Origin: Catajapyx aquilonaris | Lineage: Eukaryota | DNA: 64,000 nucleotides | NCBI GenBank assembly: GCA_000934665.2 | Contig: JYFJ02001744.1 | Location: 1-64,000, forward strand | Direction: 5' to 3' | In this document: one piece after another, positions 1-35,817 of the stretch | Position numbering within the stretch: position 1 is the stretch's first letter | How the letters are laid out: each line of letters starts with the position of its first letter | Notes under the pieces: model-generated | Database searches by the model: none | Told to the model about the DNA's origin: nothing | Seen by the model: the letters and a program-made list of their open reading frames with translations, nothing else | Made by a program: the position numbers and the translations under genes

Positions 1-394
1 TCTGCCTGCGCACTCACTCACTCGATTTGTAAACAGTGGCAACCATGGAAGCGCTCTCCATGGGCTGATGTTTGAATTGGCCCGCCGGACAGGGTTGCCA
101 GGTAACGCCGCCGCCGCAGCCGCTGGAAAAAAAATTCAGCGACGGCTAATATGTCCAGCACTGTGCAGCCATATTGAAAGCAGAAATTTATGTTTTCGTT
201 GCGTGACGATTCGGCTATAACAGACCTCGGTTATAACAGACTTTTTCCGCAGTCTCTTGAAGTTTGTTGTATCCGGATTCAACTGGACTATTAACCCTGT
301 TCGCTCCCTGCTATATCGCCATCGCCAGGTATTACCGGCCAACTCTTAAGCTGATTTAATTATGAAATTATGTTACAGTATGCGGAATATCTAC

Positions 395-722
395 CTTGAG
401 AAATGTGCCAGACTAATATTTGCTGCAATCGTTGCATTTCGCGAAAATTAAGTACGTTGGGAGTTTTCAGATGTGACGGAAGCAAGCCGCAGATAAGTAT
501 TGATTGAATTCTTGCGAAGTACCACGATTTCAGAAAATTCGTCTGGTACAGTTCTCAATGTATATATTCCGTATATTTTAGCGTATAGGCTATTTCATAA
601 TAATTAAATCAGACTAACCGTTGGCTGGTAGCACTCGACTTTCGTTTTTTTACGACTATCTCTGTGAAAATCAATTTAGGGACTTCTAAGCGACGAAAAT
701 CGTCTCCAATACATTCATAGTG
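395..722. mobile_element. DNA-transposon terminal fragment ending ...TTCATAGTG (CACTATG on the opposite strand; Transib- or CACTA-like)
   Basis: Colinear similarity to 37545-37855 (shared TTCAGAAAATTCGTCTGG, AATTTAGG-ACTTCTA); both copies stop matching at CATAGTG. Confidence 0.55.
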
Positions 723-774
723 CAGACTGTATAGTGTAGAGCATAAGTTATGTGTACTGTCAAAAAAGAACTGA

Positions 775-1117
775 AATTAGATCAAAAACTTTCCCTTCAG
801 TAAAAAAAAAAAAGTAAGACCTCTGTGGCGGAATGAAGGTACTGAAACAAGGCAGGCGCACGTAAGACCTTCACCAATTGATTTAAGCTGTACCATAGGT
901 CTTACTCAAGCAATTACCAATTCACTACTCATGAAATCTCCTTTCTGAAAACAAATTTGTGGAATTTCTGTCGTACTACTAGTTACTTCTAACTTAGCAG
1001 TACCAGTGTAGTGCAATGGTACTGCTAAGTTAATAATGTAGTAATAGTAGTATGACAAAAATTCCACCCATTACTTGTTTATTTATTTTTACTGAAGGGA
1101 AAGTTTTTGATCTAATT
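775..1117. mobile_element. MITE-like element with 32-bp inverted repeats and an internal palindrome
   Basis: AATTAGATCAAAAACTTTCCCTTCAGTAAAAA (775-806) is the reverse complement of 1086-1117; an inner fold-back at ~959-1067 includes AACTTAGCAGTACCA/TGGTACTGCTAAGTT. Confidence 0.7.
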
Positions 1118-1244
1118 ACGTAGTATAATAGTTAGGAATGAGGTGGTTCATAATATTATTTGATGGAAACGTGAACCTTAGTTTTTGCCTACTCTGGCTA
1201 CTCACAGTTTGATCCCCATTAGTTTTTTTTGTCGTATTTTTTAT

Positions 1245-1535
1245 CGTGAACCCGCCATCTTTCGGCGGCGAGCAGAAGCTTAGCTTCCCTTTTGTTCCTG
1301 ACTTCCTGATGGCCGCTGTGTTCTAGTTGACCCGAAGATGTCAGGTGAAAATTCTCCTCCATGGAGAGGTGGGGAAGGTCAGCCCAGTGAACCGCCCCTG
1401 GGCAGGTAATGTGGCGAGGCAGGGTTACGCGCGGCCTGGCCCAGGTGCTTCTAGGCCCCTCATTTAATATAGGATGGAAAGGACCACGGACAGAGGGGTC
1501 CTCGCGAACGGCGTAGGGTGGCCGCCATCTTGTCG
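1245..1535 (+). promoter_or_regulatory. CpG-rich putative promoter/first-exon region of the RIF1-like gene with two YY1-type motifs
   Basis: CCGCCATCTT at ~1252-1261 and 1521-1530, ETS-like TTCCTG repeats at ~1296-1308, high CpG density compared with the downstream gene body. Confidence 0.55.
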
Positions 1536-4500
1536 GTTTCCGGGGCGTCGATTTTATGGATTCTCACACTCTTTACTTGAAAATCATGCTGCTCATGATG
1601 ATTTCCGATATTTATGTTGATAGTCTGCAAATAATTTGGCAGGGGGGAAATTGATTTTACTGGTTTAAGGCTGCGTTTACATGATGTGAGTGAGTCTGGG
1701 ATTGCATCATAGCGTTAAGAGCGCGCTCTAGGCTACGCTATCCATTGTTGCGGGGAGCCCGTCGCGGGCCGGCCCGTGAGTTTGACACTTCTTCCTCTCG
1801 CTGTCACGGCCGCAAATATGGAGGTATCGGCATGAAACTGGAGTATATGGACGGGAAAGAGTTGCGCTTTGAGATGGTGCGCTTATTTTTCTCCTGGGGC
1901 GATATTTGCGGCCGCCGCGGCCAGGTACAGTTTTTGATTTTGACCCGCAATCACTCCTTTCCATGTCGGTACCTGTGAGATTCGAGCCCATGACAAGGTT
2001 TTTACGCCGAATTACCGTAAGTGTGTGAAAGGGCACGAGTGTGGCAGTCTTGGTTTGGCCAAACTTTGGGATGAAAAATACCCCCCTCCATGAACCGCCA
2101 TGAACAATAAGAACTCGCAGGAAGAACGCGACCAGGACGCGACGATCTGGCAGCGCTGCGTTGACTGCCAGTTCCGTAACCACGGCGACTGTGCCACTAG
2201 AAACAAGCGCTGACACTTACGACACATGGTCCAATAAGTGCAGCTGCGATTGATGGCGCAATGCATCTTTCGCAACCGCACAGCCGCCTGAACAGAAAAT
2301 ATCCTTATTCAGCGGAAGATTATGTGGAGTAAACAATTTCCACATACAAGTGTGAATGAGTAAGTGTCAGGTGTTCAGAAAGGCTGTTACATAACTACTA
2401 CGTAAATTGTATAGGCCTCGCTCCGTGACATCATCAAAATATTAGTTCTTATATGTGAATAGGAACATTATGGGCTTCATTTGGTTTACTGGGTCAGTTT
2501 TGTCAACAGAGTTTAAACTAACAGAATTGATAGGTCCCTTAGTAAGGAAAGTCCTTTTTATAGCAGAATTAATACTTTATCAGAAGCCCTCAGCTTAAGT
2601 CAGGGGTTCCCACCTGGGAGTCGTGGCCCCCTAAGGGGGCTGTGGAGCAGGTCCAGGGGGGCCATGAGAGGCATTGTACCATATTTGGTAAATATATTTG
2701 TTGTATTATTTGGCTGCTTCATTAAAGATGTTTGCCTGCTTCATTAAAGATTTATGTATGTTACTTTTGCAAGGGGGCCGTGGAGAAATTTTGAGGGATT
2801 TGGGGGGTCGTGGGTGCAAAAAGGTTGGGAATCCCTGGCTTAAGTGAATGGGGATCAGTGCAGAAAATAGGCACAAGCTGCACAAGAGCAAAGAATACTG
2901 CTCTTGCAGGCAGAAAAGTTGACTGCAGGCGTGACATTTGGTGCTTGAGGAGCATACAGGTTTGGTCGTGGAGTATTTTTGTTAATCCGAATTTTTTATT
3001 TCTGTGCTGGGTTTACAAAAGGGAAACAGTATAGATTGAGCCACTGTTTCAGAATAACAATTTCTTTGCATGTGTTTTTACACCTGCCATGAAGTGAAAT
3101 GTGTATTCTGAACGTTTCTGTTAAGCTTGATGCTTACAAATGGTCAGCCACCTGTAAAGGCAGGATCCACTGTCAAAACATTACTCACTGTTTTCGACTC
3201 CAAGGGTTTGCAGTTCCCTTGAGCACCACACCAGGCCTGGATAAAACCCACATTCCTAGTCACCTGACTAATCTAGATATTATTCAATTGTGGGAAACAC
3301 TTAGTTTAAGATAATTATGAAATTGTATAATGTGAACCTTCTTTGCATAGGAAGGATCAGTTATTGTATAGTTTTGATTGATTACAAGTTTCTATCTCTC
3401 TTCATTAGCATTATACCTGCGACACAGCCAGAAGTACATGCCGCTGGTATAGAAGATAGCCTGGATTTGCCAGCCCAGGAGTTGAGCCAATCAATACTGC
3501 AGCCAAAGCAGGCACTTACTGAGAAGTTGATTAAAAACAAGTCTGAAAAGGCAGTAGGACAAACTGACAAGACTGCAATTGCATTCTTGCCAAAGGACAA
3601 CATTGGAAGTGCAGCAACACCAACAAAGAGAGATGTAACTCTTATGCAGGGTGAGGAGGAAAATGCGAAGTCATTGGATGGATTAGTTGAGAAGGCTTTT
3701 GTACCAATGGAGAACACCCTGCCACCTAAATCCTGTGATGGGAAAGCTGTCAGTGTAACAGGTAACAGAAGGGTACTGAAGGACAAGATGGGAAATGCAT
3801 TGAATGTGCAGAGCGAGGCCTTTCTAGTACATGAAGAGGCTGAAGACACTGTGCAAGGGCAAGTTGGGAATAATTCTTCACAAAGAGAAGAGGTTGGAAA
3901 GTTAACAACTTCTAAAGATACATCTCCAAAGACTTTGGCACAACCTGTGGAGAATAAATTAGGAGATGTTGGTCCAGTGCAAGACATGGGTGAAAACATT
4001 TCAGTACAAACGACGCAAGTGGATAATGAAACCAAGACTACCAGCACTTCAAAAGATCTTACTGTAACTGGTTTGCCCAAGAAGAAGCCTGGTTTGCCCA
4101 AGAAGAAGCCTGGTTTGCCCAAGAAGAAGCCTGGCCGGCGTGCAAAAAGGAACAGGGTGAAAAGTGCACCTCACCCGAGGCCTCGCCAGAAATCATTACC
4201 AACCATTGCTGATGGGGCCGTCTCTGATAGTGAGGCCATCTCACGCCGGACACTGAGGAGTACCAAGAACAAGGAAAGTAGGACTTCTGAATGTCAACCA
4301 CTTAGGCTCAGATCATCTGTATCTGCGTCTTCGGCTGCCTCCCTTGGCAAGTCATCACCAGAAAGGAAGAAGTCCTGCACTGCAACCCTTGACCAGTGGG
4401 TTACTGGAAGTAAGCCAGCCGAAAAAACTGAAATTTCCATTACATCAGAGGCCAGTGGTGGTGGGGAGTGTAGGCTCACAGACCTGGAAGAAAGTGGTAT

Positions 4501-7500
4501 TAAACCTCCTCAAACCGTGAATGGACATGCTTCATTGCCTGTTACGACGACTCGTAAGCGTACTCGGAAGAATGTTGAGAGATATGAGGATGATGCCGAC
4601 TGGATCGCCGGGGGAAATAGTCAATCTGTTTGCACTGAGGGTAACTCAACAGACACAGACTCAGAGGCTTTGCCATCAAGAGCACAGAGGAAGCGACAAG
4701 TGCCTATTAGGTTGAGAGAGGCGCAACCTTTCGAGAGCAGCACAACTATCACAGAGACAGCACGTAATGAGGCATCTGTTATGTCAAGGAAGGATACCAA
4801 GATTTCAGACAAATCCAAAAGAAAAGGTGCCAAGGGGTGGAAAAGCCTGAGAAAAACTGGTGATGGTGTACAAGAAACACTTCCTAGTGATGCACAAGCC
4901 ATGAAAACCAACAGTTCAGATGTTACTGCAGCATTATCTGATAAGCTCAGCCCAACAAGGAACAACTTGGCTTCAGCATCTGATGCTATGGACACCTCCA
5001 CTGCCATTGAGTCCAAAAGAAAAAACACCAAGGGGTGGAAAAGCCTGAGAAAAACTGCTGATGGTGTACAAGAAACACTTCCTAGTGATGCACAAACCAT
5101 GGAAACCAACAGTTCAGATGTTACTGCAGCATTATCTGATAAGCTAAGCCCAACAAGGAACAACTTGGCTTCAGCATCTGATGCTATGGACACTTCCACT
5201 GCCATTGAGTCCAAAAGAAAAAGCACCAAGGGGTGGAAAAGCCCAAGAAAAACTGGTGAAAATGTACAAGAAACACATGCTAGTGCTGCACAAGCCATGA
5301 CAACAAACAGTTCAGATGTTACAGCAGCATTATCTGATAAGCTAAGCCCAACACGGAACAACATAGCTTCAGAATCTGATGCTATGGACACCTCCACTGC
5401 CATCGAGTGCAAGGTTACTGACAGTATGAACAGTGAGGTGAAGCCAGAATGCACTTCACCAAGCGGAACTGCTGAGAGTCCAAAAAGTGCCAGCAAGTCC
5501 AAAACTTCTCAGCTGAGTTCACCAAGTAGTAGAGAGGTCAAACCCACCCAAGTCCTACCGGGATCACCATCAACTTCTCAGCTGAGTTCACCAAGTAGTA
5601 GAGAGAAAGCCAAACCCACCCAAGTACTACTGGGATCACCATCAACTTCCTCAACCTTGATACCAGCGGAGAGTGGTGAAGCCAGTTTATTCCACTTTAT
5701 GCGCTTTTCTCAGGCTCTGACAGGTTCAAGTGCCAAGAACAAGAGCAGAGGTGCCAAAATTCTGACGATGTCCAAGGCAAAGCGAGAGACAGCCTCACTT
5801 GCTGCTGGACCTATAAGTGCAGGTGATGTGTCCCCTGATAGCATGAAGGAAATGAAGGTGAGCCTGACCCGCATAGAAGATGAAAATGGGGTTGATGAGG
5901 TCATCAGGAAGGATGGTCAGAGAGAAGCATCACTACCAACACAAAGGTGAGCATTTCAGTCACTCTTACGATATGCAGTAATGGGAATAACAGCTCAGCC
6001 TACTTACAAGGATACCCGAAGTTGCATGCACTGGCATGACCTCCTGCAGTTGCAATTTTATATCAAGAATATACATTTTTTCATCAGACCTGAAGCTCTC
6101 TCACCCAAGGGGAGAACTGTTAGGGGCACATGTCATATTTTAGTAAAACTTATGGCAATCCATGACCCTAGGTCAAAGGTCACAATAATTGACCATCAGA
6201 AATTGAACCTTGTTTTCAACTAGCATGTATTTTAGATGCCATATTTTGAGCCAGGGTATTACCTATCTCTTAGCATCAAAATCGTAGCTCTACAATATAG
6301 CTACCAAGCTGGACACTGATTTGTGAGAGGCTCTTTTCTGGTTTGCCTGGTTTTTGCATTTGCACTGCTTCTGACCTTGAATCATGAACCCTAGGTTTGC
6401 TGTCCCAAGGAGAAAGACCCTAACTGCAAAACTTGTAAGGGTGAAAGTCGCATGCATGTGGCTTTCACCCTTACTAGTTTTCCAGTTAGGGTATTTCTCC
6501 TTGGGACAGCAGAGGTGGCTGAGAGCTTCTTTGGCCCACACAATATCACATGACAAGTTTCATAACACTATGCAACAAAAAGCAACTTTTTTTCTGTCCA
6601 TGGATATTCAACGCCATTTTACTGTTCCTTAGGTCACACGTAACTCCTAATGACCATCAGGGCAGTCAAAAAATGAAAACCCTCAAATATTGAAGTTTTT
6701 CCCACTCAAGCGGGCCTCAATGTTGCTGGACCATCTCGGATTTTGCTGAAAATAATCACAGCTGTACATACCTATGCTGTAACACTGCATGTCAAGTTTC
6801 AGCCAAATTGCAAAATACCGCGGGGAGGGAAAATATCGCAAAATTTTAAAAATTGGGCCTTTTTTTGGATAAATATTTTTCGGGTATTGCAAGTGGTCAA
6901 AAGCCAATCAACATATACATCAAAGGAAAGCGAAATGCAAGTAGAATGTGCCTATTTAATTTGTTTTTCTCGAAAATGCACCCAGAAAAATCTGTGGGTA
7001 TTCCATCATCACATGGTCAGCACCATGTCCAAGTATTTAGACCCCAATAATATATTAGTGATGTACGTATTTGCTTAAGAGCAGCCATATTTGGTGACAG
7101 GAGTTGTTACCTGCACAAGATTAGATATGTTCAGTGTCAATCCTGGGTCATACATGGCTCGCGAGAAAATAATAGCTATGTTTTCCCAAATTGCCATTAA
7201 TTTTCATGGAGGCAAATTCTTGGACATGTGACACGTTTTTCTGGTTACATTTTTTCAGAGGAAAACAAATTCCATCCTCCTGGTGTTTCTTTTTCAATTT
7301 ATATGTTGATTGGGTTGATTGGGACCACTTCCACTAACTGAAAAAAATTATCCTCAATAGGCCTCCATTTCCAAAATTTTGCGATTTCTTTCCCTCCCCT
7401 TGGCATTTCGCAATTGAGCTATAACTTGATAGACAGTGTTATGGCATACGTGTGTACAGCTGTGATTATTTTCAGCAAAGTTTGAGATGGTCTAGCAACA

Positions 7501-10500
7501 TTTAGGCCCACTTGATTGGGAAAAACTGCTATATTTGAGGATTTTGGTTTTTTGACTGCTCTGGGGTCAAAAACTAATCGAAGACAAAATGAATGGTCAT
7601 TATGAGTTACGAGTGTCCTAAGGAACATGGAAGTAGCGATGAACTTCCATGGACAAATATCGCGTTGCATAGTGCGCAATCAAAAAATTTAGGCTAACAA
7701 GGGAAGTGTCTGTAGGGGTATCAGCTAATAGGCCCGAAAATGCCACTTCAGGTAAATCGCAGGCCAGATATTCATTGGTGAAAATAAAAAGTGCCCCTAG
7801 CCAAGCGTTTTCGAGATATGAGCGACGATAGGTGCATGGCAAACCTGCGCACTAGGCCAGCCTGTGGGTTGAATCCCACCTGTACACCTGCACCGAGTCT
7901 CCAAATTATATGCAGTGAGAAGGCGAGGGCACATATTTATAATTTTCGCCCTTTCCGGCTGTTTAGCAACACTGCAAACAGGTTGACGTTGATATTTCTT
8001 TTCTCATTTGTGTCCTTGTCAACTCGCAATAACTGCTCAATGAAACCGCAACTGTAAATGAATGCGTGTACAAGTAAATGAATGGACACGAACAATTTAT
8101 TATTTACTGAGCTTGTGACTTTTCATTTTTCCGAATATGAAGCCATGGAGAGAGTAGGTAAGCATCTGCAGAAGAAAAAAAAGTTATGCACTTCCCAGCA
8201 AGCTGTTTTGTTCCTGTTGATTACAAAGTGGAAGATATGCGATGATAAACGGTGTTGGGGAGCAAAAGAAAAGCTTCCCGTGGACTTGAATGGGGAGACG
8301 TTGGAGCATGAGGCGGACACTCTACTGACTGCTCTCAGATTTGTCGTTCACCTATCGTCGCTCATATCTCGAAAACGCTTGGCTAGTGGCACTTTTTATT
8401 TTCACCAATGAATTTCTGGCCTGCGATTTACCCGAAGTGTCATTTTCGGGCCGATTGGCCTATACCCCTATAGACACTTCCCTTGTAAGAGCAAATGCCC
8501 TGGAATGATTTCCAGGTGTTTGAATCTTGCAACTTTCATGCTATGCCGGCGGAAAGCGCTTATTTACGCAACCAGTTGCTGCAACATCGCACCAAAATTG
8601 CATGATTTGTGTCCTGGCTAACACCTTACTGTGAGAAAACTCTTGATAAGCAGAGAAGTGTGTATAACATAGTTTTTATTTCAGCTTGCCCAGGAGACAC
8701 TATCCATGCTCCCCGTCTACCCCCAGTGTAGGGATTCTCAAGAAGAGGCCAGCTGACTGGACTAGTGATGCATCACCAACTGCCTCCAAGAAGGCAAGTT
8801 ATTCATGCTAATGAGACTTGGGGATTTTTATTGATGTAAAATTCACATCGGAATTTAAATAACTGATTTTACTTTGTTTTCCCTATTCAGAAACCGAGGG
8901 TAAGCTTTGCAGACCCACCTGTTTCACATGCGTTGATACTGAAGTCAGTAAGCCGGTGCTTGGATATGAATTCCTCTGTTGACGAGGAGGTACCCCCAAA
9001 GGTGGTGCATGACATCCCTGTTTCTTCTGAAGACAATGCAGTTGTACCTGAAGAAGCGTCATCCACACCTGACTCATCCAATGTGTTGCCTTCACAATTG
9101 TTGACACTCGAGGAGGTGACCTCACTGAACAGAGAGGAAGTTCCAATAGCAGAAAAGGTGCCAACAACATCTCAAGAGAGAGCTGTTGCGTGCACCAAGA
9201 TGGGACCTGCATCCATACCACCAGAACCTACAGCTCCATCACTGTCAGGCATTACTTTAGCTTCTTCTCCACCTGACAGCAGCCAGGACACACCTTCCAT
9301 CTCAGCAGAAGAACCAGCTGCTCTCATGGACTCCCAAAATGCAATCTACCCACCTCTGGTTGCATGCAAAGATCCAGTTGAAGCTGTTATTACCCAGATG
9401 ACTTGCTCAGCAATGAAATATTTCGTGCTGAAGATGATGCGTGGAATTGGCATTATGACTATTGGGGATCTGAGCTCAGTATCAGAGGAGAAAGCAATGC
9501 AAATACCAGTCAAAGCACCAAGGATTAAAAACATCAGGATTGCATTGTCCAATTATCATAAAACCATTACTGCAAAAACGAAAGAGAAGGACCCAGTGGA
9601 GGATCAGCTGGCAAGGATACATGGAGAGCACATGGATATTGAACTTTCATCCAACAATGCTCCATCCTGTGTCAATGCAGAAGTGCAAGCTGTAGTTAGC
9701 TGTCACAGTAAACTTGTTCAGGCTGTGGCTAGGTCAAAGGAAAAAGCAGGTAAGACTTGAGTTCTTGAGTTGTATAAGCTTATTTATGAAGAAGTGGTGC
9801 ATCTCTGAAGGAGTCATTGCTGCCTCAAGTTAAAATTGGTGCTGTGTGTATTCAAAGAGGCTCCTACTAGCCTACCCTCCTGTGACATGACAGGACTTGC
9901 ACCATACCAAACATATTAAGCTGTCCCGACAAAGTGCTCTAATTCATGCCAGCAGCACAACATGCCTGTATTCTTTCTTTCCACCAAGTGCAAGTATGGT
10001 ACATAAAAATTCACAACAGGATTGGTGGGTTACAAGTGCTGGCAGGCTTCTCAGAAATGAGTATAGACTGATTTAACATATGGCTACTGGTGAGAGAAGG
10101 GCACCAGTTTCCAATCCTGATTTTCTTAGAACCACCGTCATTTGTTGTGTAAGGTTATGCACAGAAAAAACCCTATGAATTACAATGGGCCCTCCATATC
10201 TGCGAAGGTTTGGTTTCAGCACCCCCCTCCACATGGATACCAAAATCTGTGGATGCCTTCACATAAAATTATATAGCACAAGGAAATATGCATATGTCTA
10301 ACCTACACACATCCTCCTCTATACATACTTTAAATCACCTCAAGATTGCTTATGATACTTAATGCAATGTGAATGCTACAGTCCTTTAACCCTAATAAGA
10401 CGGGCGTCACATATGGTCTACTCTAAGGTGGTTTGGCCATGTGGAGAGGATGAAGGAGGAGGAGATTGTGAAGAAGGTTTATTCTGTGTGGCTTTTTAAT

Positions 10501-13243
10501 TTTTTCTCGCGTAAAAAATCGCGAGTTTTGGACTACACAATCGTGCATAAATAAATCGAATTAACCAGATTAACTTGAATGAAATTATCTTTTTGCGGCC
10601 GCTGAAAAAAAAACTTCGAAAAAAAAAAATCTGACCTCGACCGGCAAATTTTTGGCATACGTAGTTGCCCCAAAACCTCATGAAGAGATTCCACCCTAAA
10701 ATTAGTGCAAAAGATAATTCAATAGTATGTTAAAAAATAAATAATGCTCGTAAATGCCAATTAGCTGCTGGCGGGCGTCTGCGCACTTCAACGCCAGCCT
10801 CCGTGTGGCTGGAGGGGCGCATGCTCCATGGGAGTTTCGAATAGCTGTGGAGTGAGTGAGGGTGGGGGTTGTATATTTGTCCGTTTGGTTGGCATCCCTG
10901 TCCCGTGAGGTATTATTCATGCATACTGGTCTGTGCAGTAGCACCAGCACGACACTTTGATAAACTTCTTGTCAGCCCAGGAGTGACAAAAAATTGGAGA
11001 AAAAAATGCGCAGGCGCGAAACGCACCCTTGCTGCATCAGTTGAGAGGTTCAGGAATTTAAATCTCCGCATGGCATGCCAAGAAGGTCCCATAAATGGTC
11101 TCAGGATCAAGCCTAGACACTACACGATGTTACTCACTAGATTAGTTATGCGTGGTCCCTCAAATGACAATGCAAGCGATTTTTTTTTTTTGTAGATTCT
11201 TGCAAAAACGTGAAAAAACCGCCTGTCTATTATTAGGGTTAAACTAAAGAATGATACAAAGCCACACCAGCCATGTTTTCTGAGCATGCGTAGTAGTATG
11301 CTTGCAGAGCGATTTGGGGACATGAGAGGAGGGAAGAGCCGGGTGGAAGTGGGGGTGACATCATAATGTCCTTTGGTTTAACTAACTGTATGTAAATAGT
11401 TGTTGTATTGTATCGCAGTTCACAGCGCTTAGGGGAAATTCAAGTTTAGATTTTTGGAACTTTTGGGCCTTTCTCGAATCTTTTTGATCTGCAGTTGGTT
11501 GAGTCCACAGATAAGGTGGGCGTACTCTATCAACAAATAAGCCTTGGTTTTGGCATTATACAGTATTTAAGTATCGATCCAGTACCGTACACTGGAGTAA
11601 GCGGTCTGTTGGTTACATGGGCTTAGCCAGTCCACATGGCACAGCTACTGCAGGATGCTGAAATTAATTTTTTCCTGTATTCCCAATTTGCCTTGACATT
11701 TTGTCTTGAGGAGAGAGAAGAATGTTAGGGGGTATTGCCAGGAAGAGTAAGCCAGGGAGTTGCATCCTTGCAGCCTCAGCCAGTAGCACTGGAGAAACAT
11801 TAGGTATTGGTGCAGCCTAGTGTTCACATACTCATGGGCCCCTGGCATCCTTCATTTCCACCATAAAAACAAACTGGTTGATCAAGCAATTCAGAGGCTG
11901 ACTTAAAATAACAAAGAAATAATATTGCAGTGAATGGCATGGCAAAAATGGAGGTGATAAGAAAAAACAGTAGATATAGGAATTTTAGTTATCTGCTGTG
12001 GTAGGCCTATGTCTTTTCCAAGTGGACTGGTGGCCAACGAATGTGTGGTTTACTCTCACTGCGCTATGAGTGCACCAACTTGAAACCAATGAGTCGTAAC
12101 TCCCAAGCCAAGGTGCATTCAGCTTGCCCGTTTATGGAACCTTTTTCACTTGTATAAGTTTTCCCCATTGAATGAGACTGGTTTCAGGAAAATCAGACAG
12201 ACTATTGCACCATTCCCTCGTGAGTGACAAGCACCATATCACTGCTCAAATCAAAGTGGTACCACTTCTTTTCAAACAAGCCTTGGAAAAATAATTGCAG
12301 CATGTTGACATGTCTGTGAATTGAAATGCTCCTGGGTTCAACATTTAAAGCCTTTTGGCAGCATTTTGGGTGACGATAAGTAGACTTGTGTCAGCCTGAA
12401 TACATGCAGGGGACCAGAATGCTCCTTGCCTTCAGTTTGAATCCTGAATGTGATATTCATTAGGTAGATGAAGGGCAGCAATATTAATCTTGTAGGGTTT
12501 TGAAGGCCATTTTGTTCACACTGGTCCATGCTTTCAGTATGTAGAATCAGAGTACACAGCTAGACGTCACAGCAGTCCCTTGGAAATTTTCCGGTGGGAG
12601 CGGCACGAGTGGAGATTGCCACTCGCACCGCCCACGCCGTAAATTTCCAAAGGCCTGCAATATATTATGTCCAGCCGTGTACGAAGTTCATTTTTCAGCA
12701 GTATGTGACATAATTATGCAATTGAATATTTCATTACATTAGCTTGGGAACTCTGTGCTACTATTTTTCCACCCCATCATGATGACACTTCCTTTCTGCT
12801 TTATATGTGATCGCAGTTTTAGCTTTTCCAACAAGGAAATTCATAAGGCTGTGCTATAAACCTAAAGAGTCTTTGTTTCCCTTCCAGCTCAAGCAAGTGC
12901 AACTACGTCAGAGTCATCAACACAGAAGAATCTTCCATCCCTGGAAGAATTCATGGAAAAAGGGCAGCCATTATCAGAATCTGTGGTGGCCATCCTTTTG
13001 TCACAGCCTGCCCCTCCCCAGATGCTGGATCACTGTCTGAATGATTCTCCGATCCCAACCATCTATGACAAATTGGATGGACGGATAGGTATGGACGAGT
13101 TTTCAGACTTCTTCAAGAGGTTTTTCCAGAAGGATAGGATGAAAGAAGGGATTTTCAAGTTATTATTGGAGCAATATGATAATGTGACCATAATGGAAGA
13201 GCTTGTCAAAAGTATGAAAGCAACCAGGGGTGATCATGCCTGA
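1338..13243 (+). CDS. RIF1: RIF1-like protein, C-terminal part only (disordered region, GILK/RVSF PP1 motifs, CII/CIII-like regions). Exons 1338-1405, 3409-5946, 8685-8793, 8891-9749, 12888-13243; 3930 nt, ~1309 aa
   Basis: The spliced translation reads ...SPSTPSVGILKKRPADWTSDASPTASKK|KPRVSFADPP... and IYPPLVACKDPVEAVITQMTCSAMKYFVLKMMRGIGIMTIGDLSSVSEEKAMQIPVKAPRIKNIRIALSNYH, matching the SILK/RVSF module and CII region of metazoan RIF1 as I recall them. All four introns are phase-consistent (2,2,0,1); intron 3 is GC-AG. Exon 1 is the least certain part. Confidence 0.85.
2601..2837. mobile_element. hAT (Charlie-like) MITE
   Basis: Termini CAGGGGTTCCCA... / ...TGGGAATCCCTG with a perfect 8-bp TSD GCTTAAGT (2593-2600, 2838-2845). 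Confidence 0.9.
4068..4134 (+). repeat. Coding tandem repeat, 3 x 21 nt (GLPKKKP)
   Basis: CTGGTTTGCCCAAGAAGAAGC repeated three times exactly. Confidence 0.95.
4814..5407 (+). repeat. Coding tandem repeat, 3 x 198 nt (66 aa)
   Basis: Units start at 4814, 5012 and 5210 (SKRK..KGWKS.RKT...DKLSPTRNN...AIE) and are near-identical at DNA level. Confidence 0.95.
5503..5649 (+). repeat. Coding tandem repeat, 2 x 69-72 nt (TSQLSSPSSRE..KPTQVL.GSPS)
   Basis: Units start at 5503 and 5572. Confidence 0.9.
6595..7655. mobile_element. Diverged fold-back element with ~270-bp inverted arms in RIF1-like intron 2
   Basis: 6595-~6860 is an imperfect reverse complement of ~7360-7655 (e.g. TTTGCTGAAAATAATCACAGCTGTACA on both arms). 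Confidence 0.75.
7698..8485. mobile_element. MITE with ~135-bp TIRs starting CAAGGGAAG and TAA target duplication (Tc4/Tc5-like or PIF-like)
   Basis: Near-identical long TIRs; TAA at 7695-7697 and 8486-8488. The family assignment rests on remembered Tc5 termini and TNA TSD. Confidence 0.85.
10379..11388. mobile_element. Small TA-flanked MITE (CAGT...ACTG) inserted in the MER2-like element
   Basis: TA at 10377-78 and 11389-90; after removing the piggyBac insert the left end CAGTCCTTTAAACTAAAG imperfectly matches the reverse complement of the right end, CAGTTAGTTAAACCAAAG. Confidence 0.6.
10390..11238. mobile_element. piggyBac-like non-autonomous element
   Basis: TTAA|CCCTAATAAGACGGGCG ... 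CGCCTGTCTATTATTAGGG|TTAA. Confidence 0.85.
12555..12679. mobile_element. Small palindromic TA-flanked MITE
   Basis: TA|CACAGCTAGAC ... GTCCAGCCGTG|TA with internal arms TTGGAAATTT/AAATTTCCAA and CGAGTGG/CCACTCG. Confidence 0.6.
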
Positions 13244-13896
13244 AATTGGACCTGCAAGAGACCCTTAAAAATTGCTTGGGGGTTGGTGGGGGGGGGGGGG
13301 GGGGGGTGTTCTATGTACAGCATTGGTGTACATTCTGGGTTAAGATTTGTTTTAATCAGGCTACATGATTTTATGCAGGATTGTTGTAGAGTTATGCTAT
13401 TCCCTATTGCAAGGATGGTCAGACACATTGTTGTCAGCTGCTAATCAGGCAGTGCTGATATTAACTGAAAACTTACACTTGGATCAAAATTGTTACATAC
13501 TGTAAGCTAAGACATCACAAGGATCAAAGATATAGATTTTTCTTCTCAGAAGTCATTTTAATATGTTGCAGTCAATGTTGGCATAGTTTGGCCTAGTTCT
13601 AGAGTGGCAACTAGTACATCCATTGAACTGCATATCAGTTTGAATATCTTAACTGGTGGATCTTATCAGGGGCATCTCTCGATCTGCAGTTGAGATCTCA
13701 GTTGATCTGACAGTGAGTTGAATTAAACATTGCAGCATGGGCCTTTTCCGATCACTTATCTGACTTAATATGTGTTGCAGGGCATAGTAATCTACCCAAG
13801 TTCCACTTCGGATATGTACAGTGTAATAGATACACACTTATAAGTTCTCTATTCTAGGGAATCTACTCCAGAAGTTGGTACGTTACAATGAAACGT

Positions 13897-14683
13897 GGGT
13901 TGTTTCATAAGTCATGGCACGTGTTTTTTTATTAAAAAACGGTAACACGTACAGAGATGACCTTTGCTGAATTTTGAAGCTCCGGCGATTACAATTTGAT
14001 CTGGCATATAGATGTCACCCATATCGTAAGGAGGCAGGGAAACAAAAGGGGGATCGTGACCCCCTCCCTCCCACTGCACCATCGTCCTAAGAAGGCCCGA
14101 GCCTGCCGCGCTTGGAGCTGTTGAACATTGCATGCTGGACACTCAGAGATGGACAACACTGGAGCTTGCTTTCGAGTGGTGGGACAAGTCAGAGCACTAT
14201 GCTTAGGACTCTAAAAGACTGAAAGGTCTCAGGAAGTTGGCATCTTCGCTGGTTCCTCACCATCTCTTTGAGGCGCAAAAGAGCCACCATTTTCCCTTCG
14301 CTTAGAACTCGATCGCATTGAGGGCGATGGTTTTTCTAGATGGTTTTTCCAAACCGTTTGTGGCGATGGATGACACATGGCTCCGGTCATAGTGCTCTTG
14401 TCCCACACTCGAAGCAAGCTCCAGTGTTGTCCATCGCCAAGTGTCCAGCATGCAGCCTCCAACAGCTCCAAGCGCAGGCTCGGGCCTTCTTAGGGCGATG
14501 CTGCAGTGGGGGGGCACGATCCCCTTTTTGTTTCCCCGCCCCCCTCGCGATATGGGAGACATTTATATGCCACATCAAATTGTAATATATATTGCTGGAC
14601 CTTCAAAACTCAGCAAAGGTCATCTCTGTATGTGTTACCGTTCTTGAATTTAAAAATACACGCCATGACTTATGAAACAACCC
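13897..14683. mobile_element. Fold-back MITE with ~300-bp inverted arms, in the probable RIF1-like 3'UTR
   Basis: GGGTTGTTTCATAAGTCATGGC... (13897-~14200) is the reverse complement of ~14387-14683; this explains the mirror-image ORFs 13912-14142(-) and 14441-14647(+). Confidence 0.85.
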
Positions 14684-15800
14684 TAGTAGTTGTGTTATGG
14701 AGAATAACTGAGTTGCAATACATTACCCTGATCAGTTTCCCGGCAAATTGCAAGTAGACTGCCACTAGTTGACTCAGAAGAGAAGAACCCTGCAACCTTG
14801 ACTGTAGTGTTCCAAGTGAAGTCCAAGTCCAAGAGAGGTTATCAATTTTTTGGCAGTAAGCTGCTTATGTAAAGCAGCTACTTTTGAGTTTATTACTTTT
14901 ACAGTTGTCAAATATTAGCTTCTAATATTAGGTTGAGTAGAATAGCCCTCTCATGGCACGCATTCCTATGCAATTAACAGCTTAAGACATCGAAAGTGAC
15001 CATTTTGAACCTCATTCTCCAGAAGTTTGTGGTTGAGTCTATTTTTTTCTGACTAGCTTCTGAAATTTGTGGAGAAAGATGCTTCCATTCATACTAATAT
15101 TACCAGGTAATACGTTTGATAACCTCTAATATGTGTTCCAAAGTAACTGCTTAAGAGTAAGGAGTTGATTGCAAGAAGAAATTGCTAACTGCTATGGACA
15201 CTTCAATTGGAACATGCTGTATGTCCATTGGGCCTGTCCATCCTAATGTGAGGGAGTTGCGTGAAGGTCACCATAGCCATGCGATTCCATCGGACCCACT
15301 TCTACCTGCTCATGTAACCCAAAGGCAAGTGACTGTTTACAGAACCCAATTTTCATAATGATAGCTGCAATCTGTGATCTCTCAGTACTTTCACCTTCGT
15401 CATGTCAAGGTGTAACAGGTCGGGCTGAGGAAGCCATAGGACTGCAGCATTTTTTGAGTTTTTTTTAAAGGTTAAAGTCATTGTGTCACTCCAAATACCA
15501 TCTGGTATGGGAAAATCTTCCACTATCTTGGCACAATAGGTTGGGACCTAATTCCATGATGGCTGCCATATAGGACGAAATTTTAGCTTTGTCTTTAAGT
15601 CATGTTGATGTCCACTTTTGCGGCACAAATTGGCAGTCAGTGTTAGCGTTATCATTCATACCCATTTTCATGAAAGACTGATCATTGCTATGGTTTTTAT
15701 GCCATTTATGTTCACATCGCATTTGTAGGTTTTCTACTGTTTACAGTGAGTTTTTTTTGTCAGCTGGTACCTATTATTTGAAAATTGATGTCCAGGCATA

Positions 15801-15836
15801 AATAAAGAAAGGTGTTGTAATTGTGGTCTTTTTAAT
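15801..15836. terminator. Facing polyadenylation signals: AATAAA (+, 15801-15806) and ATTAAA (-, 15836-15831)
   Basis: Hexamers 25 nt apart between two convergent genes, at the point where the + strand switches from T-rich to A-rich. Confidence 0.5.
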
Positions 15837-16429
15837 GTTATTTAAGTAACAACATCGAAATGGACAGCACTCTTTTATGACAAAATATATACATCACCTG
15901 CTGTTATTGGAGTAGGAGGGGAATGTTGCCTACGTAATTTGTTGCACCAGTCCATGTGCAATAAATAGTGCTTTCAATGTCCACTGATGGGGAATGGTAA
16001 GGGATGATCATAAAAGATGCACTGCACACACTAAAGATGGGTTGCACAACAGTAACTACAAAACAAGTTGTTGGTCAATGTTATTCAGTATCGGTAACAA
16101 TAGTAAAAAAAAACAATGAAAGACAACGACTTGCTTTGGATATATAACGCTCATGCAAGCAATCCTAGGTTTGTTTCTATTTCTAGCAGAACATGCCCAA
16201 GTGTGATAGGAGTATGGGGCTAGGCGATGACTGACAAATGATTGACTTCAGGTGCACTTGATGCATTCTTTTGAATTTTTTGCCAGAGAGAAGGCCTTGT
16301 TAACTGAAACAAAATTTTTGTTAAAGTAGATTACCATGGTACTTATTTGAGCATTTAATTGCGCACATTGAATGTAATGATGCAAATAGGCAAACCACAA
16401 TGTATTATGGTGATGTACTCATTTATGTC

Positions 16430-16545
16430 ACTGCCTTCCGCTTCATGAGGTCCTGTGTTTGAATCCTAGGTCAGGTGCAGGAATTTTAATGACTGGGACA
16501 GATTTCAACAGGTTCTTTGTGCTTGGCTGGATTTCCACAGACATC
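16430..16545 (+). mobile_element. Decayed tRNA-derived SINE remnant
   Basis: GAGGTCCTGTGTTTGAATCCTAG (16447-16469) resembles the SINE B-box region GAGGTCCTGGGTTCGAATCCCGG with its CpGs mutated. Confidence 0.4.
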
Positions 16546-17072
16546 TGATTCTTCATACAGAATTATCGAAGTCATATTTAGATGAAATTGAACTAAACAT
16601 TGGGTAGGAAAAAGTTTTTAATGGTACTTTTTGATGGTTCAATGAGTTTTCGGATTGAGCAATTACAGCTCTTTTAAGATGTGTGGAAAAAAGAGACTCC
16701 ATAAAGAGCATTGCAATCTTCAAACTTCAAAACCTCTTACCCTGAACTAATTTGATTATTATGATGCTGACTGCTTCATGTCAGGACTTTAATATGCTGA
16801 AATGCATTACTGTGGTGATGGATGGGATATGAACACTATGTATGTGGTAGCTTGATCAATCCATCATAATTATGTTAAGAGTTATATCATGACACTTCCT
16901 ATCACAAATGTTCATATTCTGCAGTTATTGAAACTAGCCTCAAAAAGAATATAAAATGAAGAGCTGAGTAAAAACTTCTAAAAACACACACCCACAATGG
17001 CACACATAGCGACTCAATCACCACAATCCTTCTTGAGCACTTGGGTCACTTTTAAGTCACTATTGTCACTGT

Positions 17073-20000
17073 TCACAGAAACTTCATCTGAGTGACATAC
17101 GGCGTTCTGGGTAGCGGCCTGGTTGCCATTCCCCCCTCCCTCCTCCCGCCCCCACTGCACGCCCCTCCTCCTCCTCCTCCCCCACCACAACCTGGGCCAC
17201 CACCGGGCCAGTGGTGGTGGTAATGGTGACTCTTCCCCTCACTCCTCCTGGTGCGGTGATGACGAGTTGTAGCTTCGTCGTCACTCACGTAACCTGCATT
17301 GCTGTAGAGCTCCTTGATGTGGACAGGATATGCCCCACCTCTGACTCCACCTTGACCCTTGCGCTTCCCACCTTTGCTGAGGCTGGACTCACTTGACTCC
17401 TCACCGGAAGTGCCCAAGCCCAAGTCCTTATCAGCAGGGTACCTGTCACGTGGAGGGCGACCTTTTGGAGGAGGTGGTAGCGTCAGCAGGGTCATACCCG
17501 GAAGGAGCTTCCCAGGCTCTAATGGTGGATACGTTGCCACAAAGAATGGGTGAGGTGGAAGGTTTTTCGTGTCTATCTGGAACTTCTTCTTGCGGTAACA
17601 TGACCCAGGTCCTAGTATGGACAGGAGCACTGGTAGTAAAAACAAGCCATGAATGGCCCCAAAGAAGATGACAAGGAAGATGGTCTTGAAGAAAGTGATG
17701 AAGATGTAACTTGGTGCGAATATGAGTGCAATCACACCCAGTATAGTTGACAGAGCTCCCTGGAGAATTGGCATTCCCAAGGCATAGAGACATTCTTGAA
17801 CTCGTTCTTCGGGTGTCAATCCGGATGATGACATGTAGGCATATGAGATGTGGGCTGAGAAGTCAACAGAGAAGCCTATGCACATGATGAGGTTGATCAT
17901 GGAGATGGCATCTAGGTTGACGTTCCAGAGAGTCATGTATCCAACCACACCCGACTCAATTGACATTATGGAGAAGAAGATCCAGAGGCAGCACAATGGG
18001 TTTGGAATGAAGATGAGGGACACCACCACCATTATTCCACCAGCTATCAGGATGCACTGCAGAGACGTTGGAAGAACCAGCAGGAACTGTAATAAAAGTT
18101 ACACATTAGAGGCTTAATCTTGTTGCCATCATCCAGCATCAAACTCATACCTGATCAAAGAAGACAAAGTACGGGTGGAAGACAGTGACATTGAACTTGG
18201 AATCCCTGCAGATCTTTCTGAGAGCCGCCACCATGTCCTTTTCCTTGTTGGCACTGGTGATGTTGACTGCCTGGATAACAAATCTTGAGGCCAAGATCTT
18301 GGTGTAGTTGGCGTTGAACAAGACATCAAGTGCAAATGTGCCACTTAGATACACGTCTCGTAGTGTGTCGATAAAGTCCTGCTCTGTAGATATGTTGTAC
18401 TCCTGGAATTCCCTACTTCTTTCCACGTAACCCAAAAATGAACGCAGCCATGACTCGGTGAAGAGTGAGTTGTTGATGTATGGAGAGGACTCAAATGTTT
18501 GCATCAACTCCTCAATATCACGCTGCACCTCTGGATCAGAGTAATCCTGCTCGCCACTCAGCACAACTTGTATCCTGTACGGGTACTCCCGGAAATACAA
18601 GTCTTCTCTGTCGTAATAGTCGACTGAGTAGGAGTCATATCGAGACAGTTTCCGTCTCTCAAGCCCTTCCTGCACCTGTGTAATGCCCCAACAACCGATC
18701 CCAAGGTAAGCCAAGAAGACCAAGATAACTAGGGCCTTCACCAGTGGATAGTTGAGCACTCGAGCCACCTTGTTCCTGAAGAATAACATAAGGGTGTGCT
18801 CTTTGTTGTCCTCTGGGTTATACGGATCCTTCTGGCTGATCCCTCCTGTGCAGAAGAGACGTCGGATGCAGCTGCGACCAGTGGCCTCCGACTTGGGGGT
18901 GGCCTCAAGGCAGCAAAAAAATGAATGACGGTTGTCCCTCTCATGGTAGCCAGACAATGCGATGCAGCCGCCGAAGAAGGTGATATGCCAAAGATATGTG
19001 CATATTACAGCCGTACCTATAGAATGATCATGAAAAAGTTGGGGATGAGCAGCGTACCGAATATATTTGACATCTTTATACACGAAGTCAACTCGTGCAG
19101 AATTATTATTTCTAGTATTGTTGTTGTTGCAGAAGAATATTCTGCCTATGCCGCAATAACGTTTCTTCTTGAGTGCATCAGTTAAGATAGATAAAAAAGT
19201 GCCATTTTGACACAGTTGTCCACAAAGCTTGACAGCAGGTCAAGCCAGAGTTAACGCATCCGCAACGCACTAGACACAGCGCATTCCATCCTCTGCAAAT
19301 GCCGTTCGCTCACCTGTGTACACCGAAAATATCCGCACACACGGGAAGGGCGTGATGACTCCAACCCAGAAGCTGAGTATGTCCGTGACTGAAGTGATGG
19401 TGATGGACACCGCCGCATCGGCATACATCTTTCCCATCCGGGCCGGTACCGACTCGTGAAGCGTCGTCCTTCGCCAGGCAGCCAGCATCACAAATGTGTC
19501 GTCGATCCCAATGCCTGAAGACAATAGAAAGCAATGTTGCGATCAACTCTCATGTGGCTTCCCATGCATACACATTTCGTAAAATTAGCAATGAATCTGA
19601 AACCAGAGAAACTCCAGATGTCACGGATTCACTGACATGCACTTTGATCGGAACATTTTATGAATTTCTCACTGGTCAATATAAAAAACAAAAAAACGCA
19701 CTTTCATTCACGCCCACACACGCGTTGCATTTCACCAGGCAAGTCCTCACTTTTCTTTCTCCAGGGCGCAACAAGTGTGGATAAAAAAGCAATTAACCAC
19801 GACATATTTCCCATCGTCGTCCTCTTTCTTCCCTACCTCTCCAGCTCGAAGAAAGGAAAAGTACAAGTATTACGTCAATTATGACATCCGTTCCATTTAA
19901 TTTAAAAAATGCTTTGTTATCGTGCGGCTAATTGTTCTTGCACACCCACAGCAATTACAACTTTTAAGCTTAATCAGTCCTGTTAATTGTTGTGCTCATT

Positions 20001-33700: not shown

Positions 33701-35817
33701 AGTGACGCTATCTGTGGCGTGCATCCGGCTAAGAGATGTATACATCACCCTGGTACTGAAAACAACGAAACACCATTGTTATTTTATTGCAAGTACAAGT
33801 GCAGTGTGCGTGCATCCGTTAAATGTGGGAGTGAATTATTTTTTTTCTGTCGGGAATAAAAATCGCAAAGCACCTACTTTTCTTTCATTCATAGTGTAAA
33901 CAATATTACAAAGTGCTGTCTAATGATAACAATAACCCAGGCATTTTATACTAAGCATTCACTTCGTGTACGATGATGGACACTGCTTGAACAATGTGAT
34001 TTTCTCATAGTTATTGCAATTATTGTGAGAACATGACAAGTGAATGACCCAACAGAATGAAAGTGTTACATGTTAGCATTAAAATCTCCTCGCAGATTCT
34101 GTATATAACAATTACCAATATTACTGCGATTTATGTCCATCGTAGATATTCTTCAAATATTAAATAATGGCATAATTGTCGGCATATTATTTACGTAACA
34201 CTCTAGGTACATCGCTTAAATGTTCATTTGCCAGTTCTGGTGATTAATAAGGCATCAACCGTTGCAAACTTAACGAAACGTGTCATGCAAAGATGCAGAA
34301 AATTTGTGGCAAAATGAGCTTGGCTCGTTGCAAATACCGACTATTCATCATCAGGAGCTTTCATGTCACGAGATTAAACTTCTTCCCAAGGTGTGCCAGG
34401 ACGTTCATATGTGAATTCATAGCTTCATTATTATGACATCGCCTTGCCACATATCGCCGAGGGAAATCGTCATGAGTCAACTGGCACCATCCCTTTGGGA
34501 AAACAAAAAAGTACGTGCTTCTTGCCAAATGATTTTTTAACTTTTGAGAAGCTGTAACTATTTTCTTTCCATCCCATTGTTCTTTTAGAATTACGTCCAA
34601 AGGAGACTTTTACACCGTTGCGAAACAGAGAAATCTAACAGGTGTGCAATTGGCATCGGAGGTCCTTTTTGCTGATTTTCGATCTCGGTGAATGGGAAAA
34701 GGCTCAAAACTCTACATCGAAAGAGGACAAGACCGACTTTTAACTGAAACAATGCCTATAGCAACCGTGCATATGTCGGTGGCTATAACTCTCTGGGGAT
34801 GACTCCAGGGGATGATGCGAAGAAAAACGTCTAAGCTGCTTAACCTGTTTCTCATTGTTTGCTTCAATGAGGACATGTTCCTCTCAGGGAGGTTTGCATG
34901 TGCTGACACAATATCGCATTCCTAGGGCTAAAAATATGTGCCAAGCAAACAATTAGCTATCGTTAATGCCAATCGCAGGTGTGACAATCCTTTTTTAAAA
35001 TTCTTCAGCATGCTATCCGTTTATGATCGTGCTTCCAGAAATAAAAAATGTTACGCAGTTGGCTGACCACATTTTTGACACAATTCTCTCACGGCATCAT
35101 ACGGTATCGTTCCCCAAATATGTGTCACAAACAGACCCCCACCAAAAGGACGTGTGAAGGGAAGCTCACAATAATAGAGCAATAAAGAACACTAACAATG
35201 AGGTATGCAGGGTGGGAGGATCGGGCGAGAAGTGGAGGAAACAATAAGGTACCATCTTCATGTTTGGCTACCACCAAATGCAGTGCCAGCTGGCGGCAAA
35301 TGGGGGTTGCACAGAACCCCGTTTCCCAACTGGTATTTTCAGAACCGGCTTCGAAGATTGCTCTTGTGCTGTTTTCTTGTGGCTGTTGCCGAATGTCTCA
35401 ACTGCACCACTCCATCTGCAAAACCGGGTCATTACTGTTTACCAAGTGGGTTTATCGTGACGGATGCCAGGCATGTAAACCAATTTATCCTGCACAACTT
35501 GCAATATCAATTCTCTGAAGGAGTGAAAGTGAGCCCTCTGGAATTGCAAACTGCGTAATTTTTGCCTTCTTCCAAGTTAAAAAGGATGGCCCCAGGGTTG
35601 ATTCGTGCCAAATGCAGACATGTGGTCAATTAAATGGTGGCGTTTGAAGGGGAATGTTTTGAATTCCTTTTGCTTCACATTCCCTTGACACTCAGAGTGT
35701 GTGTTTTTTTTGCGTAATTGGCAGTAGTTTCGCTTGGCCTATTTTACGTTTTAATTGATTGTCAAAGTTCAATATCCTGACAAACAACAACAAACAACAA
35801 AAATAATTAGACCGACT

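Follow-up and report, generated by a model that had tools for sequence, protein, structure and literature searches.

A RIF1-like C-terminal module at the edge of a 64-kb window: ordinary RIF1 cut by the edge, or HEAT-less gene?

Background

RIF1 is a replication-timing gene. The survey in PMC3410773 reports HEAT repeats in all surveyed RIF1 homologues and the SILK + RVxF motif pair in all RIF1 homologues, and describes the CIII/BLM-interaction region as vertebrate-only. In mouse, Rif1 without its N-terminal HEAT portion hetero-oligomerises with full-length Rif1 and behaves as a dominant negative, according to PMC8686075. The HEAT dependence of RIF1 roles has so far been addressed with engineered truncations of this kind, and two of the mouse forms, deltaN984 and C552, resemble the 1309-aa model described here in combining a disordered region with the C-terminal domain and no HEAT. 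These, however, are presented there as artificial constructs or unexplained polypeptides, not as a separate gene of the kind considered below.

Gene structure

The window analyzed, meaning the whole 64-kb stretch of DNA from Catajapyx aquilonaris, contains a RIF1-like gene close to its left edge. Its five exons (Table 1) join to 3930 nt, an uninterrupted frame of 1309 codons closed by a stop. A first-pass annotation had described this gene, and all of its features were found where it had placed them, with the 1309-codon frame open; the CpG-rich 5' DNA, the two YY1-type motifs and the CpG-poor gene body that it reported are likewise present.

Table 1. Coordinates of the features of the RIF1-like gene and its 5' region within the 64-kb window
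Feature	Position	Strand	Remarks
Putative first coding exon, 68 nt (MSGENSPPWRGGEGQPSEPPLG)	1338..1405	+	ATG at 1338, donor CAG/GTAATG at 1405/1406, phase 2
2538-nt exon, 846-aa low-complexity disordered region	3409..5946	+	
109-nt exon with GILK (SILK-type PP1 motif)	8685..8793	+	
859-nt exon, RVSF (RVxF PP1 docking) at start, CII-like domain encoded at ~9320-9600	8891..9749	+	
Last coding exon, 117 aa + stop	12888..13243	+	
CpG-island-like block, 1.2 kb	1201..2400	.	GC 0.43-0.56, 74 CpG, observed/expected 0.7-1.1
First GCCATCTT motif, YY1-type	1254..1261	-	
Second GCCATCTT motif, context gccgccatcttg	1524..1531	-	

The 2538-nt exon follows an acceptor, ...cattag/C, at 3408/3409 and is open solely in the frame that requires a phase-2 donor. 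Three tandem arrays keep the frame within it: 3 x 198 nt at 4814-5412, 3.2 x 21 nt at 4068-4134 and 2 x 72 nt at 5503-5649. The 846-aa product, which is of low complexity and matches no Pfam family above cut-off, corresponds to the long disordered region that separates HEAT from the C-terminal domain in RIF1. The intron at 8794-8890 is of the GC-AG type, with the donor AAG/GCAAGT on the 109-nt exon, and two other introns measure 2.7 and 3.1 kb. No Pfam family scored above cut-off on the four coding pieces of the gene, and an Rfam search of the whole window gave 0 matches.

Relation to known RIF1 proteins

When the 859-nt exon was used as a phmmer query against 1.84 billion proteins, 113 matches were obtained at E<=1e-3. 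The best had an E-value of 5e-13, and since this was reached against so large a collection, the homology to RIF1 is beyond chance. All 113 matches cover query residues ~125-265 and lie towards the C-terminal end of their proteins, which are as long as 2905 aa; the names among them include 'telomere-associated protein RIF1' from beetles, a damselfly, a sawfly, a scorpion, an oyster and teleosts. Pfam Rif1_N was detected in 10 of the 25 long matches scanned, and more of the long matches, P0001 for example, have a HEAT N-terminus that is visible to phmmer alone. Sequence comparison thus supports a RIF1 identity for the C-terminal module of the window gene.

This module contains a CII domain, predicted to bind DNA, that is homologous to the CII of other RIF1s, with which it shares 24-40% identity over ~70-260 aligned residues among the tblastn matches listed. 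The nearly invariant CII columns L26, C29, T60, G62, L64, P76, P80 and L89 are all kept, and in the protein library searched the closest relative reaches 39% identity over CII. Just upstream of CII, 44 of the 59 matches of at least 900 aa have [SG]ILK...RVSF; as in those RIF1s, which space the two motifs by about 20 residues, the window's GILKKRPADWTSDASPTASKKKPRVSF conforms to the pattern, its two halves lying in exons 8685-8793 and 8891-9749. It is therefore a SILK + RVxF pair of the RIF1 type, which in metazoans sits C-terminally, and is predicted to dock PP1. The arrangement also agrees with that of other RIF1s in having ~1000 aa of disordered sequence ahead of the module and the module itself C-terminal.

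The last 117 aa differ from other RIF1s in having no detectable counterpart there: comparison of the last exon with 127 RIF1-family sequences gave no significant match (best E 0.026). We found no CIII/BLM-interaction region in the window gene, a feature that is not defining outside vertebrates. A search of exon 8891-9749 against proteins of 502-2000 aa yielded no longer homologous protein, the best ESM Atlas score (0.75, a bacterial hypothetical cluster) was uninformative, and the PDB sequence search gave chance rows alone, at E 0.13 or more.

The 5' end and the search for a HEAT domain

The first-pass annotation had proposed that the gene begins with the 68-nt ATG exon, spliced in frame to the 2538-nt exon. 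The coordinates, donor and phase of this exon are right, and its ATG has an A at -3, but the in-frame splice is no better than chance. Region 1-3408 contains four ATG-started phase-2 mini-exons whose donors are just as good, and in a set of 200 shuffles 81% yield at least one; the 68-nt exon is therefore no evidence for a start here. This result favors an ordinary full-length RIF1 and counts against any reading in which translation begins at 1338. The annotation's own caveat holds in both its parts, as the acceptor ...ctgtgttctag/ttgacc at 1326/1327 and the open frame following it are real, and a CTGAC branch-point-like site precedes the acceptor. It should be noted that the putative first exon could instead belong to a 79-nt internal exon (1327-1405). 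The frame is also open from base 2 to a donor, CAG/GTAACG, at 101/102 that is phase-compatible with the 1327 acceptor, which counts in favor of a gene continuing to the left. The left-edge ORF itself (2-100) was considered as a HEAT exon and rejected, its best E-values against the RIF1 set being 0.91-1.6 at scattered positions. An unspliced start at the in-frame ATG at 3317 was rejected as well; the sequence there is AT-rich, hydrophobic and intron-like, just ahead of a good acceptor.

Other RIF1s carry a HEAT/Rif1_N part (PF12231, a HEAT region of about 1000 aa), whereas no exon for one was found anywhere within the 64 kb. With the 67 RIF1 matches of at least 900 aa as queries, tblastn hit the window at 8500-9700 alone, apart from one stray match. 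Pfam gave nothing above cut-off for the 60 ORFs of at least 35 aa in 1-3408, and eight N-terminal RIF1 HMMs run against the 2756 six-frame ORFs of the window reached a best E of 0.15. These results argue for a HEAT-less gene and against one cut by the edge, but the window holds 1337 bases of upstream DNA only. Among arthropods, named full-length RIF1s have 2088-2905 aa, and their CII lies ~900-1000 aa past the end of HEAT; the distance from the start of the 2538-nt exon to CII, ~1020 aa, corresponds to this post-HEAT length, which argues for an ordinary RIF1. Two exact-pattern scans of metagenome contigs for the DNA left of the window gave 0 matches each. Presence or absence of HEAT hinges on that DNA and on transcript 5' ends.

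CpG content of the 5' region

CpG observed/expected is about 1.0 over 1-2400, including 1-800, and falls to 0.0-0.5 from 2401 onwards, with values of 0.1-0.5 over the next 16 kb; of the 32 500-bp intervals in 2501-18500, only one reaches 0.9. The boundary near 2400-2500 lends moderate support to a real 5' end here. CpG content is normal in a MITE-like element at 333-630 and low in an inverted-repeat element that lies within the depleted zone, at ~2590-2845; this resembles a genuine methylation boundary. A comparable pattern marks the 5' ends of the two copine genes in the window, where CpG is normal at the first C2 exons and becomes depleted ~0.5-1 kb further in. All of this speaks for a stand-alone gene, with 2.4 kb or more of undepleted DNA at its upstream end, and against a gene that merely continues past the edge. 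On the other side, CpG-normal patches also occur within the gene's own introns, at 7501-8500, where there is a foldback element, and at 10501-11500. The Ptr gene in the window, only weakly CpG-depleted for ~7 kb, shows that normal CpG content can extend over a long 5' stretch of a gene here.

The CpG-island-like block is a candidate promoter region, or else unmethylated DNA within an intron. Both copies of GCCATCTT in 1-3400 lie within it, which again favors a transcription start here over an intron of a longer gene. However, the plus strand reads GCCATCTT at both sites; the form that we take to be the usual YY1-type consensus, AAGATGGC, is therefore on the minus strand, and the motifs point away from the direction of the RIF1-like gene. 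In a sensitive blastn comparison of 1-2600 with the rest of the window the block had no repeat copy, the element at 327-722 alone recurring, at 37.6 kb. ORFs in the block gave no Pfam match, protein homologue or transposon protein signal, and a search among proteins of 89-284 aa found no homologue for a 162-aa minus-strand ORF (1731-2216). These negative results count in favor of a HEAT-less gene with its own promoter.

Interpretation

The likeliest reading, though it falls just short of an even chance, is an ordinary full-length RIF1 whose HEAT exons would lie left of base 1. The window edge would then cut an intron longer than 3.4 kb, a length that is unremarkable in this gene because its known introns reach 2.7 and 3.1 kb, and the 68-nt ATG exon would be a chance match or part of the 79-nt internal exon. 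Downstream of the HEAT part, the product would consist of the long disordered region, a GILK(x20)RVSF module presumed to dock PP1 (protein phosphatase 1), a CII-type domain of putative helix-hairpin-helix fold that would bind DNA and oligomerise, and a lineage-specific tail. The universal occurrence of HEAT in the surveyed homologues cited above agrees with such a gene, and annotating the locus as a divergent arthropod orthologue would then be a matter of routine.

Database models that carry CII but no Rif1_N resemble the window gene at first sight. Those of Bemisia tabaci (1321 aa) and Acanthaster planci (1076 aa) retain CII with SILK-RVSF, and a 1585-aa model of Anabrus simplex retains CII. 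In Bemisia, an older fused model of 2406 aa was replaced by models of 1065 and 1321 aa, the latter equal to residues 1086-2406; because a single ORF spans residues 922-1546 of the fused model, split annotation is the likelier reason for the missing HEAT. Two further C-terminal-only models are named as bird or tuatara RIF1, and one of them is marked partial. Such partial or split annotations favor an ordinary RIF1 at this locus too, while the RefSeq model of Anabrus, with no detectable HEAT, gives some encouragement to a HEAT-less gene.

We regard it as possible, but rather doubtful, that RIF1 has split in this lineage and that the window contains a stand-alone gene of ~1309 aa, either split off from RIF1 or a truncated paralogue of it, and driven by a promoter at ~1.2-2.4 kb. 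Its transcripts would begin around 1150-1337, in the CpG-island-like block. PP1 docking would be retained, as would DNA binding or oligomerisation through CII, and the protein could act alone or as partner or competitor of a HEAT-bearing RIF1. The fully open 1309-codon frame behind a usable ATG and donor is in keeping with such a gene, and the dominant-negative mouse truncations described in PMC8686075 offer a functional precedent. A literature search on RIF1 domains, on truncated or internal-promoter isoforms and on crustacean Rif1 yielded no natural HEAT-less RIF1 gene, and the survey that found HEAT in every homologue weighs in the same direction. To our knowledge, no natural HEAT-less RIF1 gene has been verified. 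If real, this gene would be the first in the literature searched and a natural separation-of-function allele. Recruitment through HEAT would no longer be coupled to PP1 delivery and DNA binding, or the protein would be a natural dominant-negative partner of the HEAT-bearing form. It could then help to show which roles need HEAT among PP1 targeting to origins, chromatin or lamina association, and oligomerisation.

An unlikely variant is a single RIF1 gene with two promoters, in which HEAT exons lie to the left and the block at 1201-2400 is an internal promoter whose transcript starts with the 68-nt exon and encodes an N-terminally truncated isoform. It would account for a CpG-island-like block with its motifs inside a would-be intron, and for a usable acceptor at 1327 beside the ATG at 1338. 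N-terminally truncated Rif1 polypeptides occur in mouse oocytes and 2-cell embryos, but the authors of PMC8686075 found no transcript evidence for the short forms. An internal promoter also does not explain why the DNA to the left of the block (1-800) is CpG-normal, and the 68-nt exon, being no better than chance, counts against this variant too.

The position at the window edge and the wealth of MITE-like elements in the upstream DNA would fit a locus that is a decaying 3' remnant or pseudogene copy of RIF1, or one that the assembly has broken off from its 5' part. Either is very improbable given 1309 codons without a stop, tandem repeats that stay in frame, intact splice sites and the retention of the PP1 motifs and nearly invariant CII residues.

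Predicted fold of the CII region

The AlphaFold model of the CII region has a mean pLDDT of 79, with a core above 93 encoded at ~9340-9580. Foldseek gave no match at E<=0.001; the top two rows were RNA polymerase alpha C-terminal domains at E about 1, with TM scores of 0.66-0.68 by target. In VIA, Z scores of 5.0-6.3 were obtained over 57-68 residues, with the RAD51 N-terminal domain, SAM and the alpha C-terminal domain tied. The predicted fold thus aligns with small DNA-binding domains of the (HhH)2 type, but with the families tied and the scores within the range of common helical arrangements, this likeness between models may be taken as a resemblance of fold only. One of the homologues, P0006, itself matches Pfam RNA_pol_A_CTD.

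Identity and gene model of the RIF1 C-terminal half

At the level of predicted protein sequence, the visible part of the gene is confirmed as RIF1 in its C-terminal identity. When exon 8891-9749 was compared by phmmer with 1.84 billion representatives, 113 matches were obtained at E<=1e-3 (best 5e-13; two at <=1e-10, none at <=1e-30), all on query residues ~125-265 and near the C-terminus in long proteins. Pfam Rif1_N, the N-terminal HEAT domain, was detected in 10 of 25 long matches taken from the 113 and scanned, and phmmer searches using residues 1-1000 of each of three RIF1s showed that further matches, including the RIF1-family protein P0001, also have the HEAT part. The source name is 'telomere-associated protein RIF1' in beetles, damselfly, sawfly, scorpion, oyster and teleosts. 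The PP1-docking pair [SG]ILK...RVSF lies immediately upstream of the match to CII, the C-terminal domain, in 44 of the 59 matches of at least 900 aa, and GILKKRPADWTSDASPTASKKKPRVSF in the window is a typical instance of this module. Alignment with 24 short matches showed that the nearly invariant CII columns are retained; the closest library protein has 39% identity in CII. Matches, names, module and columns together bear out the RIF1-like identity proposed in the first-pass annotation. By analogy with the family, GILK/RVSF would dock PP1 and so counteract DDK phosphorylation of MCM, and CII would serve in DNA binding and oligomerisation. The CII stretch was modelled by AlphaFold with a core pLDDT above 93, and the model resembles small (HhH)2 domains, in fold only: RNA polymerase alpha-CTD took the top two Foldseek rows (E about 1), and in VIA the RAD51 N-terminal domain, SAM and alpha-CTD were tied (Z 5.0-6.3).

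The ATG, donor, acceptor and exons of the earlier gene model were correct. The five pieces join into 3930 nt, an open frame of 1309 codons plus stop with no internal stops, and the sole open frame of the large exon requires two bases from an upstream exon. The 97-nt GC-AG intron at 8794-8890 falls between the GILK and RVSF codons; with its GC donor, GILK and RVSF stand 20 residues apart, as they do in homologues, and no GT donor keeping the frame was found for this intron. The large exon is of low complexity and has tandem repeats that keep the frame, with units of 198, 21 and 72 nt; the 66-aa units appear recent because they are 90-95% identical. For the last exon no relative was detected. 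A run of ~25 G residues occurs at 13283-13310, ~45 nt past the stop, in the presumed 3' UTR.

Features of the RIF1 locus and its neighbours
Feature	Position	Strand	Remarks
Putative first coding segment	1338-1405	+	ATG at 1338; 68 nt; donor CAG/GTAATG at 1405/1406
Large exon	3409-5946	+	2538 nt; good acceptor just before 3409
Exon	8685-8793	+	GC donor at 8793 (AAG/GCAAGT)
Exon	8891-9749	+	phmmer query
Last exon	12888-13243	+	
Tandem repeat, disordered exon	4068-4134		3.2 x 21 nt (PGLPKKK), in frame
Tandem repeat, disordered exon	4814-5412		3 x 198 nt, 66-aa units, in frame
Tandem repeat, disordered exon	5503-5649		2 x 72 nt, in frame
MITE-like inverted repeat	333-630		Upstream of large exon; CpG-normal; related copy at 37559-37855
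MITE-like inverted repeat	775-1117		Upstream of large exon
MITE-like inverted repeat	about 2590-2845		Upstream of large exon; CpG-poor; by eye, absent from repeat-tool output
Palindrome	6398-6511		57-nt arms; intron 5946-8685; CpG-poor
Nested inverted repeats	6582-7668		Arms 76 and 175 nt; intron 5946-8685; CpG-poor
Foldback	7687-8496		161-nt arms, 89% complementary; intron 5946-8685; CpG-normal
Patched-related gene (Ptr/PTCHD3-like)	about 17073-24794	-	Convergent with RIF1 3' end
Copine-like copies, tandem	39139-40250; 43761-45542	+	C2-domain ORFs in each
Long trinucleotide runs	35692-36153; 41959-42456	-	Poly-Tyr in stop-to-stop ORFs

The 5' end

No HEAT exon was found within the 64-kb window, which offers only 1337 bases upstream of the ATG. 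With 67 RIF1-family proteins as tblastn queries, 74 of 75 matches fell at 8500-9999 on the plus strand and one was a stray. Pfam gave nothing above cut-off for 60 of the 62 ORFs of at least 35 aa overlapping 1-3408, the two omitted being those on the large exon; eight RIF1 N-terminus HMMs run against 2756 six-frame ORFs gave no match better than E 0.15 and none at all within 1-3408.

The in-frame splice of the 68-nt ATG exon, offered earlier as a sign of a true start, is not evidence, because the real 1-3408 contains four mini-exons that start with ATG, end in phase 2 and have an equally good donor, and at least one appears in 81% of 200 shuffles. The accompanying caution about an acceptor before 1327 was justified: a pyrimidine-rich tract and CTGAC lie upstream of ...ttctag, so that the stretch 1327-1405 could serve as an internal exon of 79 nt. 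From base 2 an open frame runs to a donor, CAG/GTAACG (101/102), whose phase fits this acceptor, a fit that by our estimate chance alone would give in roughly a quarter of cases; the encoded left-edge peptide has no RIF1 similarity. An in-frame route from the window edge into 1327 still exists.

CpG content was as described, rich at the 5' side and poor in the gene body. Observed/expected CpG is ~1.0 in 1-800 and 0.7-1.1 in the island-like block at 1201-2400, drops to 0.0-0.5 at position 2401 and remains low as far as about 18.5 kb. Only 1 of 32 500-bp windows in this 16-kb domain reaches 0.9; patches of about 1 kb occur at 7501-8500, overlapping a foldback element, and at 10501-11500. Within the window the block is single-copy, and it contains neither an ORF of transposon type nor one with a protein homologue. 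The outermost MITE-like elements upstream of the large exon flank the boundary from opposite sides. Both copine genes are likewise CpG-normal at their first C2 exons and depleted ~0.5-1 kb further in; the rule is not strict, since the Ptr gene is only weakly depleted over ~7 kb. Among the arguments for a 5' end here, this boundary alone carries weight, and in our estimate it weighs for a 5' end by a factor of about five. Both YY1-type motifs were confirmed: within 1-3400, GCCATCTT occurs only at positions 1254 and 1524, and its minus-strand reading is AAGATGGC, the usual form. If functional, they could equally serve a divergent or antisense transcript.

Cut gene or separate gene

The reading that we rank first, at slightly under an even chance, is an ordinary RIF1 gene truncated by the edge of the window. 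A separate HEAT-less RIF1 gene would account for the CpG boundary but is rather unlikely: the RIF1 homologues surveyed in PMC3410773 all have HEAT repeats, and an intron of more than 3.4 kb is ordinary. The same paper reports the SILK/RVxF pair for all RIF1 homologues, C-terminal in multicellular animals. An internal promoter, for which the CpG block is the candidate, is improbable, and a remnant or assembly break very improbable; a small remainder of the odds goes to none of these readings. These rankings follow from combining that prior with the CpG boundary.

Named full-length arthropod RIF1s have 2088-2905 aa, with ~900-1000 aa from the end of HEAT to CII; the corresponding stretch here, which runs from the large exon as far as CII, measures about 1020 aa. 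This fits the remainder of a canonical RIF1 cut at the border of HEAT and disordered region, and would suit cut gene and fission alike. Public annotation includes C-terminal-only RIF1 models; two are named as RIF1 of birds or tuatara, and one of these two is marked partial. In Bemisia a 2406-aa model was superseded by models of 1065 and 1321 aa, yet one ORF covers residues 922-1546; the 1585-aa Anabrus RefSeq model has CII, with HEAT not detectable. A natural RIF1 gene without HEAT did not turn up in literature searches on RIF1. According to PMC8686075, when mouse Rif1 is deprived of its HEAT part it associates with the full-length protein and has a dominant-negative effect; a natural HEAT-less RIF1, if one exists, would be expected to act similarly.

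Neighbouring genes and repeats

Six exon blocks of the Ptr gene map to decapod and insect orthologues (37-74% identity); its best whole-ORF matches are decapod crustaceans at 55-61%, with insects just below. These matches place the source of the DNA among pancrustaceans, with a crustacean outside the sampled decapods as the probable reading. The first C2 of each copine-like copy matches Pfam C2 at E 4e-16 to 3e-18; CpG-normal DNA precedes each copy, and a long depleted stretch follows the second, to about 53 kb. The RIF1 intron between 5946 and 8685 is dense in foldback or MITE-like elements (6398-8496). The poly-Tyr trinucleotide runs probably represent microsatellites, not coding sequence.
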